From: a virus
Taxonomy: Duplodnaviria; Heunggongvirae; Uroviricota; Caudoviricetes
Length of the DNA stretch: 9,136 bases
Reading direction: 5' to 3' (one strand)
Virus record (IMG/VR): IMGVR_UViG_2698536549_000013
Part shown: in pieces, positions 2,104 to 9,136 of the stretch
Layout: every line of letters starts with the position of its first letter
How positions within the stretch are numbered: position 1 is the first letter of the stretch
Notes under the pieces: model-generated
Seen by the model: the letters and a program-made list of their open reading frames with translations, nothing else
Told to the model about the DNA's origin: nothing
Databases searched by the model: none
Position numbers and translations under genes: made by a program

Positions 2104-2820
2104 ATGTCTGCTTTGTATGAACGCTCACAGCTGACGCAGGTGATGATTTCATCTGCCCCGGCGACTGCTGAAACTATGGATAAGGCGGAATATCTGCGCC
2201 TGGACTGCACCATCAAGGAAGTCCAGTTCACCGCCGGTCAGAAACAGGATATTGATGTGACCACGCTCTGCTCCACAGAGCAGGAGAATATCAACGGTCT
2301 GGGGGCGTCGTCTGAGATTTCCATGTCGGGTAATTTTTATCTGAATCAGGCCCAGAACGCCCTGCGTGATGCCTATGACAATGACGCGTTGTATGCGTTT
2401 AAGGTGCTGTTTCCGTCCGGTAAGGGCTTTAAATTCCTGGCGGAAGTGCGCCAGCACACCTGGTCATCCGGTACCAACGGCGTGGTGGCTGCAACGTTCT
2501 CACTGCGTCTGAAAGGCAAACCGGTGTCCTTTGTGGTACCGCTGGCGTTTGTGAAAAATCTGGATAAGACACTTACCGTGAATACCGGTGCGCTGCTGAC
2601 AATGTCAGTCAGTGCCAACGGGGGAACGCCGCCGTATAAATACGCCTGGAAGAAGGATGGTCAGCCGGTTGACGGGCAGACGACAGACACCTTCAGTAAG
2701 CCAGGTGCGCAGTCCGCCGATGCGGGGAAATATACCTGCGTGGTGACCGATTCGGCAGAGAAAGCACAGAGTGTGACGTCTGTTGAATGCACCGTGACAG
2801 TGAGCGCAGCCGCCGGATAA
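2104..2820 (+). CDS. Major tail (tube) protein with C-terminal Ig-like (Big_2-type) domain
   Basis: 238-aa ORF from ATG 2104, preceded by AGGAGG (2094-2099); the 2035 start in the ORF track lacks an RBS and would overlap the hairpin. C-terminal ~80 aa ('TLTVNTGALLTMSVSANGGTPPYKYAWKKDGQPVDG...AGKYTCVVTDSAEK...') has the Y-x-C pattern of Ig-like domains also found at the C-terminus of lambda gpV. Sits immediately upstream of the chaperone/tape-measure genes. Confidence 0.8.
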   Translation: MSALYERSQLTQVMISSAPATAETMDKAEYLRLDCTIKEVQFTAGQKQDIDVTTLCSTEQENINGLGASSEISMSGNFYLNQAQNALRDAYDNDALYAFKVLFPSGKGFKFLAEVRQHTWSSGTNGVVAATFSLRLKGKPVSFVVPLAFVKNLDKTLTVNTGALLTMSVSANGGTPPYKYAWKKDGQPVDGQTTDTFSKPGAQSADAGKYTCVVTDSAEKAQSVTSVECTVTVSAAAG

Positions 2821-2834
2821 GGGGATGGGTCATC

Positions 2835-3209
2835 ATGAAAAAGGATCTGAAAACGCTGGCGCTGGCCAGACTGTCAGGGTTTCGTCATAAAACGGTGAAG
2901 GTGCCGGAATGGGGTAATGTCAGCGTGGTGCTGCGGGAGCCTTCGGCAGAGGCCTGGTATCTGTGGCAGGACGTGCTCAATGGTGATGGAGAGGATGACG
3001 ATACTCTGTCGGTGGTGGCGAAAACCCGCCGTAACCTGGAAGCGGATGTGACGCTGTTCTGCGATGTCCTGTGTGATACGGATCTGCAACGGGTGTTCAC
3101 TCCGGACGACCGTGAGCAGGTGCTGGCCGTCTATGGTCCGGTACATGCCCGCTTGCTGCGTCAGGCACTGGAACTGATCGCTGATGCAGAGTCGGTCAGA
3201 AAAAAGTAG
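2835..3209 (+). CDS. Tail assembly chaperone (G-like)
   Basis: 124-aa ORF from ATG 2835 with a GGGGA RBS-like purine run upstream, lying between the major tail and tape measure genes. Ends ...RKK-stop, with the slippery heptamer A_AAA_AAG (3200-3206) just before stop TAG 3207-3209. Confidence 0.75.
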   Translation: MKKDLKTLALARLSGFRHKTVKVPEWGNVSVVLREPSAEAWYLWQDVLNGDGEDDDTLSVVAKTRRNLEADVTLFCDVLCDTDLQRVFTPDDREQVLAVYGPVHARLLRQALELIADAESVRKK

Positions 3210-3514
3210 CCCGCCCGGAAATTCGCTTTCTGATGCGACTTGCGCTCCGTCTGGGGCGCACCTTATCCGAACTGCGGCACAGCCTGAGTGCGAGCGAGGC
3301 GATGATGTGGATGGAGTTCGACAGGATATCCCCGCTGGGTGATGAGCGCGGGGATATCCGTAATGCACAGATCGTGAAAGCGGTTTTCGGGGCACAGGGG
3401 ATGAATGTTGCACTGAAGGACGCCATGCTCTGCTGGGGCGAGGATGAGGATAAGCCGGAGGTGGATCCGTTTGCGGCGCTGGAAGACGCGCTGAGCCTTG
3501 CAGCACAGTCATGA
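2835..3514 (+). CDS. Tail assembly chaperone G-T fusion, produced by programmed -1 ribosomal frameshift
   Basis: The -1 frame relative to G is open from stop 3182-3184 through the slippery site to TGA 3512-3514 (includes ORF 3233-3514). A -1 slip at A_AAA_AAG joins ...VRKK to VARPEIRFLMRLALRL... The T-like extension has no convincing independent start or RBS. Confidence 0.65.
3200..3206 (+). other. Slippery heptamer A_AAA_AAG for -1 programmed frameshift (G to G-T)
   Basis: X_XXY_YYZ heptamer in the G frame (AAA 3201-3203, AAG 3204-3206), three nt before the G stop; the downstream -1 frame is open. Confidence 0.65.
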
Positions 3515-6500: not shown

Positions 6501-6804
6501 TGTGGACACGCCCACGTACTTTGCCTTTGCAAAAGGGGCAGGGCTGATGGGGGAGGCCGGACCTGAAGCCATCATGCCCCTGACCCGGGCAGCGGATGGT
6601 TCACTCGGCGTGCGTGCGGTGGGCAGTATGAACGGCAGTGCGGGTCTGGTGTATTCCCCGGTGTACCACATCGCCATTCAGAATGACGGCGCTAACGGGC
6701 AGATAGGGCCGGAAGCGGCGGGCACCCTTGTGCAACTGATTGACCAGCGGGTACAGGCGGTGATGTTATCCATGCGTCGTGACGGAGGAATGCTGAGTGG
6801 ATGA
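3562..6804 (+). CDS. Tail tape measure protein (lambda H-like role)
   Basis: 1080-aa ORF with RBS AGGAGAAAGG (3549-3558). Position after the frameshifted chaperones is diagnostic. Long Ala/Gln/Glu/Arg-rich predicted coiled-coil centre, two hydrophobic Gly/Ala-rich segments (~4430-4550 and ~4780-4860) and a Gly-rich C-terminus are typical of tape measure proteins. Confidence 0.9.
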   Translation: MATLRELIIKISANSQSFQSEIQRASRMGSEYYRTLQNGGRQAAAAAREQCRALAELNSQLTEIRASAVGMTSAFAGAFATGHLISLADEWSSVNARLKQASQSSDEFALSQKVLMDISQRTGTAFSDNATLFARSAASMREYGYSADDVLKVTEAISTGLKISGASAAEAGSVITQFSQALAQGVLRGEEFNSVNESGDRIIRALAAGMGVARKDLKAMADDGQLTADKVVPALISQLGILRDEYAAMPETVSDGITKVENAFMAWVGGANEASGATKTLSGALNGVAGNIDTVATAAGVLVAVGVARYFGNLASGAMSATAGLVTAARNEVALAEAQLRGTQIATARARAAVYRAQQAVAAARGTEMQIAAEARLAVTQERLNRNIAARTAAQNALNSTTAVGSRLMSGALGLVGGVPGLVMLGAAAWYTLYQNQEQARESARQYALTIDEIAHKTPSMSLPEASDNEGRTREALTEQNRLIDEQASRVKSLQEKIAGYQYVLANPGWTTGNGFMINHLTSVKTVTEELAQATEQFAVEQSRLAQMQEKAQSIQDVLAGLEERRVVLIRQQAAEQNKAYQSLLVMNGQHTEFNRLLGLGNELLQQRQGLASVPLRLPQATLDDKQQSALNNTERQLALSRLKGEEKERARLGYAADDLGLVGDTYQEARQRYIRNSMEAWRNNEANKPKSRAGKSGAEKAEDSFSRLLKQQKEQLALAGKNTELAKLKYQTSQGELKTLTEIQKQELLRNAALIDQKKIREQLRAREETLKNDNADARASNDAELLGYGQGERVRERMRELQQIRDGYRQKDADLQSQYQTGDISEDFYRQALAQNAQYLSERLKDQEAFYAESDAQRADWQKGLQEGLSNWVDSASDYASQAAQLATDGISGMVNNITEMLNGNKVEWRSWAASILQEISKVLMNAAIVNGIKMAANSMSGAGGFFGSIGNWLGGAVANAKGGVYTSANLSAYSNSIVDTPTYFAFAKGAGLMGEAGPEAIMPLTRAADGSLGVRAVGSMNGSAGLVYSPVYHIAIQNDGANGQIGPEAAGTLVQLIDQRVQAVMLSMRRDGGMLSG

Positions 6805-7138
6805 GATTAAGACTCTTCACTGGTGTCCCCGGGAAGGGATGCAGGTGACGGAGAAACCGTCGGTGATGACGGTGAAGTTTGGCGACGGTTATCAGCAGCG
6901 TCGTCCGGCAGGACTGAATGCGCAACTGAAGACCTTTCAGGTGGTTTTTCGGGTGACAACGGATGCTGAGCGGGAGGCACTGTCCGCGTTTCTGTCATGG
7001 CATGGTGGTTACCGGGCTTTTTTGTGGAAGCCCCCGAAACATAACCGGACGGTCAGGGTGGTGTGCCGGGAGTGGAGTATTACGGATAACGCCCGGTACA
7101 GTGATTTCAGTTGCACGATAGAGCAGGTAGTTAGATGA
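6797..7138 (+). CDS. M: Minor tail protein M (lambda gpM family)
   Basis: 113-aa ORF starting at GTG 6797 with GGAGG (6784-6788) upstream, overlapping the tape measure stop (6802-6804). Recalled lambda gpM shares motifs ('...KFGDGYQQR.PAGLNA.LKT...', '...HGG...FLW.PP...') and the position directly after the tape measure gene. Confidence 0.8.
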   Translation: MDEIKTLHWCPREGMQVTEKPSVMTVKFGDGYQQRRPAGLNAQLKTFQVVFRVTTDAEREALSAFLSWHGGYRAFLWKPPKHNRTVRVVCREWSITDNARYSDFSCTIEQVVR

Positions 7139-7218
7139 GAATTATCCTATAAATCATTCTTTAGTGTTTAGTTGTTAATTATTTTTAATCTGTCTTGTCA
7201 GAAAGTGCGAAATCGATC

Positions 7219-7248
7219 TTGCATTTACATTTTGTTACATAATATAAA
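7219..7248 (+). promoter_or_regulatory. Candidate sigma70 promoter and OmpR-box-like element upstream of the porin gene
   Basis: TTGCAT (7219-7224) is a -35-like hexamer, with ATATAA/TATAAA (7242-7248) 17-18 bp downstream. Embedded ATTTACATTTTGTTACATAA (7223-7242) resembles the tandem 10-bp OmpR half-sites of ompC/ompF promoters as recalled. Lies in the AT-rich leader ~90-115 nt upstream of ATG 7337. Confidence 0.35.
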
Positions 7249-7336
7249 TTGAACTAAGAATTTGTATTAAAATATTTTAATTTTTGTTCATGACATCTGA
7301 ATGCATGAATAGTTCAGTTTAAATAAGGATTAAATC

Positions 7337-8491
7337 ATGAAAAAAATGACAGTGGCACTTTCTGCTGTAGCAGTGGCAGTGATGTTTGCTGCGGGGGCGC
7401 AGGCAGCAGAAGTTTATAATAAAGATGGTAATAAACTGGATCTTTACGGGCGTGCAACCGCTCTGCATTACTTCTCGGATGATAAAGGTAATGACGGAGA
7501 CCAGACTTATGCTCGTCTCGGCTTTAAAGGCGAAACGCAGATTAATGATCAACTGACCGGATTTGGTCAGTGGGAATACCAGTTCTCTGGTAATAAAACG
7601 GAATCTGAAGGTTCCGCGGGAAATAAAACCCGTCTGGCATTTGCAGGTCTGAGATTTGCAGATGTTGGTACCATTGATTACGGACGTAACTATGGTATTG
7701 CTTACGATGTCGGATCATATACTGACGTACTGCCTGAGTTTGGTGGTGATGGCTGGACGCAGACCGATAACTTTATGACGGCCCGAACTTCCGGTGTCCT
7801 GACTTACCGTAATACAGACTTCTTCGGACTGGTTGATGGTCTGAATTTTGCGGCGCAGTATCAGGGCAAAAATGAGCGTGATGACCTTCAGAAGGCTAAT
7901 GGCGACGGGTATGGTTTCTCGGCCAGCTATGAGTTTGATGGTTTTGGTTTTGTCGCTGCGTATACCAAGTCAGATCGTACTGATAAGCAGGTTCAGGGGT
8001 TGAATGGTACTGCAGATGTTCTTGATCCTGCATCAGGTAAAAAGGTTGGAGAAAAAGCAGTTGACTCAGGTAGTGTGGCAAAAGGTAAACATGCTGAATT
8101 CTGGGGAACTGGTCTTAAATATGATGCCAATAACCTGTATCTGGCAGCAGTGTATTCTGAAACCCAGAATATGACGACCTTTGGTGATCAAGGTGTTGCG
8201 GATAAAGCTCAGAATATCGAAGCCGTTGTTCAGTATCAGTTTGATTTTGGTCTGCGCCCGTCCCTTGCCTACCTTCAGTCCCGCGGACAGGATGTTATGG
8301 TTGGTGGTGTGAACCATGGCGATCAGGATCTGGTTAAATATATTGATGTCGGTGCGACTTATTACTTTAACAAGAATATGTCCACCTATGTTGATTATAA
8401 AATTAACCTGATTGATGAAAGTGAATTTACCCGGAAAGCCGGTGTTGCGACAGATAATATCGTTGCTGTGGGTATGACTTATCAGTTCTGA
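7337..8491 (+). CDS. General diffusion porin, OmpC/NmpC/OmpD/Lc family (phage-borne moron)
   Basis: 384-aa ORF with RBS AAGGA (7324-7328). Signal peptide [23 protein letters not shown] cleaved before [15 protein letters not shown], the mature N-terminus shared with enterobacterial OmpC/NmpC as recalled. Conserved PEFGGD constriction-loop motif and C-terminal ...VAVGMTYQF ending in Phe. Set in AT-rich DNA unlike the flanking tail genes. Confidence 0.9.
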
Positions 8492-8664
8492 TTATTGCTG
8501 ATAAGTTAATAAATACGGGCCGTCTGCCCTTACAGGCGGCCTGTATCAATGAAAACACAGTTTTCATTGGTCACTGCGATCAGCAATTGCCATCTGGCAT
8601 GTGCTGATTTAACTTTCTGTTATTACCTTTATTGGTTTTATTTTAAATTGGACTTTTATTGTTC

Positions 8665-8688
8665 GGGGCGCGTCTGCGCCCCTTTTTT
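8665..8688 (+). terminator. Rho-independent terminator at the 3' boundary of the porin moron
   Basis: GGGGCGC (8665-8671) pairs with GCGCCCC (8676-8682), loop GTCT, followed by TTTTTT (8683-8688). Lies 13 nt upstream of the L start. Confidence 0.6.
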
Positions 8689-8700
8689 ATGGGCGGATAT

Positions 8701-9136
8701 ATGCAGGATATTCACGAAGAAAGCCTGAACGAGTCGGTTAAGTCAGAGCAGTCACCGCGGGTGGTGCTCTGGGAAATCGACCTNNNNNNNNNNNNNNNNN
8801 NNNNNNNNNNNNNNNNNNNNNNNNNNNNNNNNNCCCGATTGAGGGCAGCGGCTTTGAGATGAACGGAAAGGGCAGCAGTGCCCGCCCGTCGCTGACGGTG
8901 TCCAATCTTTTCGGCCTTGTCACCGGGATGGCGGAGGATTTGCAGAGCCTGGTGGGTGCCACGGTGGTCCGCCGCCGGGTGTATGCGCGTTTTCTTGATG
9001 CGGTGAACTTTGTGGCGGGGAATCCGGAGGCAGACCCGGAGCAGGAGCTGACGGACCGGTGGGTGGTGGAGCAGTTATCAGCGCTGACGGCCATGACGGC
9101 CTCGTTTGTGCTGGCGACACCGACGGAGACGGACGG
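8701..9136 (+). CDS. L: Minor tail protein L (lambda gpL family), partial: interrupted by an assembly gap and running off the window end
   Basis: N-terminus MQDIHEESLNESVKSEQSPRVVLWEIDL closely matches recalled lambda gpL (MQDIRQETLNE...VVLWEIDL). After the N-run, a different frame encodes ...GSGFEMNGKG...RPSLTVSNLFGLVTGMAEDLQSLVG.TVVRR.VYARFLDAVNFV..., again matching gpL. No stop before the window end. Confidence 0.8.
8784..8833. other. Assembly gap (run of 50 N) inside the L gene
   Basis: Exactly 50 consecutive N. The L reading frame differs on the two sides (ATG 8701 versus CCC 8834), and lambda gpL has about 31 residues between the flanking motifs, so the true gap length is not 50 nt. 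Confidence 0.95.

Follow-up and report, generated by a model that had tools for sequence, protein, structure and literature searches.

The major tail gene of IMG/VR virus record IMGVR_UViG_2698536549_000013, a stretch of 9,136 nucleotides from a member of the Caudoviricetes (hereafter the window), encodes a major tail (tail tube) subunit of the HK97 gp12 family that carries an immunoglobulin (Ig) domain of the I-set type at its C-terminus. This, rather than a Big_2 or lambda-V-type designation, is the correct label for the protein. The gene lies on the + strand at positions 2104 to 2820 and specifies 238 amino acids (aa), of which residues 1-145 (2104-2538) constitute the tube-forming domain and residues ~146-235, followed by a three-residue tail, the Ig domain (2539-2817). 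The protein is a routine member of a family that the literature has described and RefSeq has named, and recognising it and its Ig domain here adds nothing new.

Homology to the HK97 gp12 type extends over the full length of the protein. It matches PHROG 158 'major tail protein' across residues 1-237 (E 6.7e-117), HK97 gp12 (NP_037706) at 68% identity, full length and without gaps, and ORF64 of the Stx1-phage BP-4795 at 90% identity; at the DNA level the gene is 99% identical to that of Stx2a_WGPS6 and 98.9% identical to those of phage 2851 and YYZ-2008. RefSeq entries are called either 'immunoglobulin domain-containing protein' or 'major tail subunit', and since no NCBIfam family was matched there is no curated NCBI name beyond these product names. 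HK97 gp12 and BP-4795 ORF64 have the same two-domain layout as the window protein and differ from it only allelically, mostly in the second half of the Ig domain; together with PY54 gp12 they are the examples tabulated for tail tube proteins that bear an I-set domain (PMC9022992, Table 3, in a section that cites Fraser et al. 2006). From its homology to HK97 gp12 we infer that the protein is the major component of the assembled tail tube. The family is abundant, with a match of at least 90% identity in 1245 of 5426 complete E. coli genomes and up to eight matching places per genome.

The gene is a single unbroken open reading frame (ORF), read without recoding from an ATG at 2104, which has AGGAGG upstream, to a stop codon at 2818-2820. 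A mechanical ORF list had given a GTG start at 2035 and a product of 261 aa; this was dropped in favour of ATG 2104, because every homologue begins with MSALYE and AGGAGG stands before this ATG. The annotated N-terminus of BP-4795 ORF64 is likewise over-long. Because there is one ORF and no recoding, each subunit bears the Ig domain. We also considered attachment of the domain by programmed frameshifting, as in SPP1 gp17.1*, and rejected it, as the Ig segment shares the frame of the tube domain throughout 2104-2820. SPP1 gp17.1* likewise has a C-terminal Ig-fold accessory domain on its tail tube protein, dispensable for assembly and infection (PMC9022992, PMC8718954), but that domain is of the FN3 class and is added by a +1 frameshift, whereas the one described here is I-set, in frame and carried by all subunits.

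An earlier note on this DNA had placed an Ig-like domain at 2560-2817, an interval that is in frame with the major tail gene and corresponds to residues 153-238, and had quoted two motifs, PPYKYAWKKDG and GKYTCVVTD, which are found at residues 176-186 and 208-216, respectively. The domain is real. When the whole 238-aa protein was scored against the curated gathering thresholds of Pfam, four Ig models exceeded their cut-offs: Ig_3 (PF13927; 37.3 bits vs cut-off 30, E 3.9e-09), Ig_2 (PF13895; 35.7 bits vs 27), I-set (PF07679; 33.1 bits vs 23.7) and ig (PF00047; 22.8 bits vs 21.8). The 86-aa Ig fragment by itself matched Ig_3 with an E of 1.2e-09, far beyond chance. AlphaFold2 models residues 148-234 as an all-β domain, with a predicted local distance difference test score (pLDDT) of 86 to 97 as 10-residue block means, and the model is a two-sheet β-sandwich that superposes on solved I-set and C2 domains. 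We conclude that the C-terminal ~90 residues are an Ig-superfamily domain of the I-set / Ig_3 type. The note had allowed for either a Big_2 or an I-set-like class; I-set holds, but Big_2 (PF02368, the type found in lambda gpV and T5 pb6) gives no match in Pfam even at E ≤ 1. The location of the domain also stands, except that it begins some 5-8 residues earlier, at about residue 146, and is better bounded at about 2539-2808, because the first Ig strand spans residues 148-151 and natural variants that lack the domain stop just past an invariant K-G-K-P140.

With strand labels assigned by position among the predicted strands, the hallmarks of the superfamily can be located in the sequence. Trp182 (TGG, 2647-2649), in a predicted strand at residues 179-184, supplies the core tryptophan of strand C, and D206-A-G-K-Y-T-C212 (GAT GCG GGG AAA TAT ACC TGC, 2719-2739), which overlaps a predicted strand at residues 208-215, supplies the D-x-G-x-Y-x-C motif of strand F. 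The W182 column and G208 are each at least 90% conserved in an alignment of 30 sequences, and at least 90% of homologues keep the core and BC-loop residues G173, G174, P177, Y178, W182, G208 and D216. The classical intersheet disulfide between strands B and F cannot form, because there is no cysteine within residues 146-205; the only cysteines of the domain are C212 and C229, and the strand-B position appears, from its spacing to W182, to be taken by a conserved V169. The B-F disulfide is common but not obligatory, and is absent from many titin I-set domains. The BC-loop motif G-G-x-x-P-Y-x-Y-x-W (residues 173-182, about 2620-2649) is near-invariant in the family, is shared with T5 pb10 and also matches the Pfam SprB repeat weakly (E 0.005); it might help determine the fold or serve as a surface for binding. 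The nearest sequence relatives of the Ig domain among solved structures are phage proteins, namely multi-Ig tail or 'Ig-like domain' proteins (9ncf_S, whose four repeats together give an E of 2.5e-38, and 9c2d_S) and the T5 head decoration protein pb10, which is matched in its full-length chain (8zvi_a, 3.2e-19) and again in the C-terminal Ig domain taken alone (5lxk_A, 2.1e-17).

We next consider how the protein relates to lambda gpV, for which the earlier note had suggested a different tube fold joined to a similar accessory domain. The contrast runs the opposite way: the two proteins share the tube fold and differ in the family of the Ig domain. In a Foldseek search with the whole model, full-length lambda gpV (7t4f_A) ranks first, with an E of 4.3e-09 over 254 aligned columns, in agreement with the proposed gpV-like architecture, in which an Ig domain is appended to the C-terminal side of the tube domain; the tube-only gpV chains 7t2e_A and 8k36_A are also returned, with TM-scores normalised by target length of about 0.5. 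Residues 1-145 adopt the canonical long-tail tube / Hcp fold, a bent β-sandwich with one flanking helix and a long β2-β3 loop that superposes on solved tube proteins. The sequence signals are remote but point the same way: identity between the tube domain and gpV in structural alignments is 16-18%, alignment of the family profile to gpV by hhalign gives an E of 3e-04 and a probability of 39%, and the window protein scores 23.8 bits on Phage_TTP_11 ('lambda-like'), a model whose cut-off is passed, with 33.4 bits, by the 147-aa relative P0100. On Phage_TTP_12 the window protein reaches an E of 0.018. Lambda gpV itself (from NC_001416) scores 235 bits on Phage_TTP_12 and 70.1 bits on Big_2. Its tube domain is only remotely related to the one described here, and its accessory domain shares the Ig fold class with ours while belonging to another sequence family. 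Likeness of the two accessory domains is not borne out in sequence, the best BLASTP alignment of residues 141-238 to gpV 151-246 having an E of 0.11 and consisting of out-of-register pieces. Modelled separately, residues 1-147 average a pLDDT of 65.8; block means reach about 74-83 in most core strands, and a stretch at residues 45-68 is of low confidence. From its position, this stretch would be the counterpart of the long β2-β3 loop of gpV, a loop that showed elevated dynamics in the monomer and that, in the tube, mediates contacts from ring to ring (PMC8718954).

What might such a domain do on a tail tube? Carbohydrate adhesion is the published proposal for domains of this kind (PMC9022992, PMC8718954), and by analogy we think it more likely than not that the protein is a tube subunit whose accessory Ig domain acts as a weak, multivalent adhesin for surface glycans. 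Residues 1-145 would form the hexameric rings of the tube, and the I-set domain, residues ~146-235, would hang outside it on every subunit without being needed to build it. As a low-affinity, high-avidity adhesin the domain could bind lipopolysaccharide or O-antigen, capsule or gut mucus, and by holding the virion close to the cell surface it would raise the rate of adsorption. We infer exposure on the tube surface, copy number and ligand from the literature on related domains, which in T5 and YSD1 hang on a flexible tether. Ig domains stick out from the tubes of lambda, T5, SPP1 and YSD1, and in SPP1 and lambda a tube can form without them (PMC9022992, PMC8718954). The tape measure protein encoded in the window is 1080 aa long. 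In lambda, a gpH of 853 aa goes with 32 hexameric rings, and scaling by tape measure length would give about 40 rings and roughly 240 outward-facing Ig domains per tail.

The view that the domain is an accessory to the tube agrees with its distribution. The earlier note had thought of the protein as a mosaic, and the Ig domain does behave as a mobile module, in that variants without it occur and the same module is found on unrelated anchors. Among the homologues are proteins of 147 aa, including P0100 and P0111, that share about 77-79% identity with window residues 1-147 and stop a few residues past K-G-K-P140, and the match to Cronobacter phage ENT39118 is limited to residues 1-139. The contigs of the 147-aa homologues have the same neighbours as the window (an HK97-gp10-like gene, a gp17-like gene, the tube gene and the chaperone gene), and the chaperone gene begins 9 nucleotides past the stop codon. 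This gap leaves no room for an Ig domain, which is thus truly missing from these relatives; attachment by a frameshift was excluded on the same grounds. The Ig domain is therefore modular and, in nature, dispensable. As the shorter variants occupy otherwise identical cassettes, the tube does not need the domain, and this counts against the idea that its main task is to stabilise or assemble the tail through neighbouring subunits on the tube surface, with no part in adhesion. That idea draws on lambda, where the Ig domain is oriented parallel to the tube, in contact with the β1-β2 loop of the adjacent subunit, and where removal of the gpV C-terminal domain lowers activity 100-fold although tails still form (PMC8718954); purifying selection on the Ig domain here, with a ratio of nonsynonymous to synonymous divergence (dN/dS) of 0.20, would also suit it. 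Besides the Ig-less variants, however, the Ig domain diverges much faster than the tube domain, the mean identities of 27 full-length homologues to the window protein being 50% and 74%, respectively, and the domain also occurs on head-decoration and whisker proteins, whose anchors are unrelated. Fast divergence and unrelated anchors fit an outward-facing module better than a lattice contact, and we regard a chiefly structural role as unlikely.

The extent to which the module has travelled is seen on T5-like decoration proteins, 'tail' proteins and neck-whisker proteins, where it occurs at 45-57% identity, as well as in Hoc-like PHROGs and further families of tail proteins. The Ig domain of HK97 gp12 (47 of 89 residues identical, compared with 113 of 145 in the tube domain) is about as close to that of the window as are the modules on these unrelated anchors. 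The C-terminal Ig domain of T5 pb10 (PDB 5LXK) and T4/RB49 Hoc are joined to a helical domain that binds the capsid and are exposed on the head, whereas the domain here is mounted on the tail tube. Such promiscuous spread over unrelated structural proteins could also be expected of a nearly neutral passenger, a robustly folding domain dispersed by recombination, and the occurrence of Ig-less variants and the unaffected infectivity of SPP1 after deletion of its equivalent domain (PMC8718954) point in the same direction. Against this, dN/dS is about 0.2 across the Ig domain, the core and BC-loop residues listed above are kept in at least 90% of homologues, and more than a thousand E. coli prophages have kept the domain. 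These features speak for selection on function, and we consider a passenger very unlikely.

Within adhesion, the ligand might belong to the animal host and not to the bacterium. Adherence to mucus or epithelium has been suggested for Hoc as well as for Ig adhesins of gut phages (PMC13370021), and by the same analogy the domain could bind host glycans or epithelia, such as mucins, and so keep the phage in gut mucus. Likeness to Hoc at the level of the fold is, however, uninformative on ligand, and the domain is also found in prophages of the plant-associated Pectobacterium and Dickeya, for which mucus is irrelevant; binding to host surfaces instead of bacterial ones seems to us improbable. Several points weigh against adhesion to surface glycans itself. 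For lambda and T5, too, this role "remains to be experimentally verified" (PMC8718954), our literature search found no ligand or binding assay for the HK97 gp12-type family, and no HK97-type tail structure showing the orientation of the Ig domain was found. The model of the N-domain is of moderate confidence (mean pLDDT 65.8), and the evidence on selection and recombination, described below, comes from a single allele pair. The abundance of the family and its natural Ig-less variants make it a convenient system for asking what phage-tail Ig domains bind.

For the analysis of selection and recombination the window gene was compared with one allele, that of phage Lys8385Vzw. Synonymous divergence (dS) is 0.081 over codons 1-145 and 0.588 over codons 146-238, and the nucleotide differences cluster past about nucleotide 567 of the gene (window 2643-2820, about codons 180-238), a pattern suggesting that a recombination breakpoint falls within the Ig-coding part. 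With dN/dS at 0.15 for the tube domain and 0.20 for the Ig domain, this pair also suggests purifying selection on both; at the level of the whole domain it lends no support to positive selection on the Ig domain. In the comparison with HK97, dS is at saturation and carries no information. The seven-fold rise in synonymous divergence inside the Ig-coding part leads to a further, decidedly speculative idea, to which we give little credence: that HK97-like and Stx-converting prophages have, in their tail I-set domain, a specificity-bearing adhesin whose distal half is swapped from one prophage to another by intragenic recombination, tuning its binding to particular O-antigens or to gut mucin glycans. 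If this were true, swapping would affect the places in which Stx phages persist and the choice of strains that they lysogenise.

The window as a whole is the head-completion and tail part of an HK97-like, lambdoid E. coli prophage, and the same module occurs in long-tailed Stx-converting phages. A chromosomal locus of strain STEC1587 is 99.9% identical and, as annotated by RefSeq, carries in order the genes for portal, head-tail connector, head closure, HK97-gp10-like protein, gp17 tail completion protein, major tail subunit, tail assembly chaperone and T, tape measure, minor tail protein, porin and minor tail protein L. The major tail gene thus follows the head-completion and tail-terminator genes and precedes the frameshifting chaperone pair and the tape measure gene. 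The tail-module gene order is the same in HK97 and BP-4795, where the neighbours are again the HK97-gp10-like and gp17-like genes, the -1 frameshift chaperone and the tape measure.

The gp17-like gene is separated from the major tail gene by 65 nucleotides, which contain a terminator-like hairpin, CCCGCCGCGTGCGGG, followed by a T-run (2067-2090). In HK97 a putative terminator is annotated after gp12, whereas the hairpin here precedes the major tail gene. Downstream, a slippery heptamer of the -1 type, A AAA AAG, lies at 3200-3206, directly ahead of the TAG of the chaperone ORF (2835-3209), and the -1 frame entered there continues into the 'T' ORF (3233-3514); this arrangement is that of the conserved G/GT-type programmed frameshift, which is also annotated for HK97.

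Towards the end of the window, minor tail gene L (~8702 on) contains a run of 50 N (8784-8833), masked or unsequenced. Between it and minor tail gene M (6797-7138) is inserted a porin gene (7337-8491, + strand, 384 aa, 'porin OmpC' in RefSeq), whereas in BP-4795 M is followed directly by L with no porin gene between them. The segment bearing this gene (window 7139-8700) was found in none of 50,697 phage records and was matched in 126 of 5426 E. coli genomes, 109 of which hold at least 80% of it. The porin gene is too diverged from chromosomal ompC to give a megablast match, and it looks like a moron within the tail operon.
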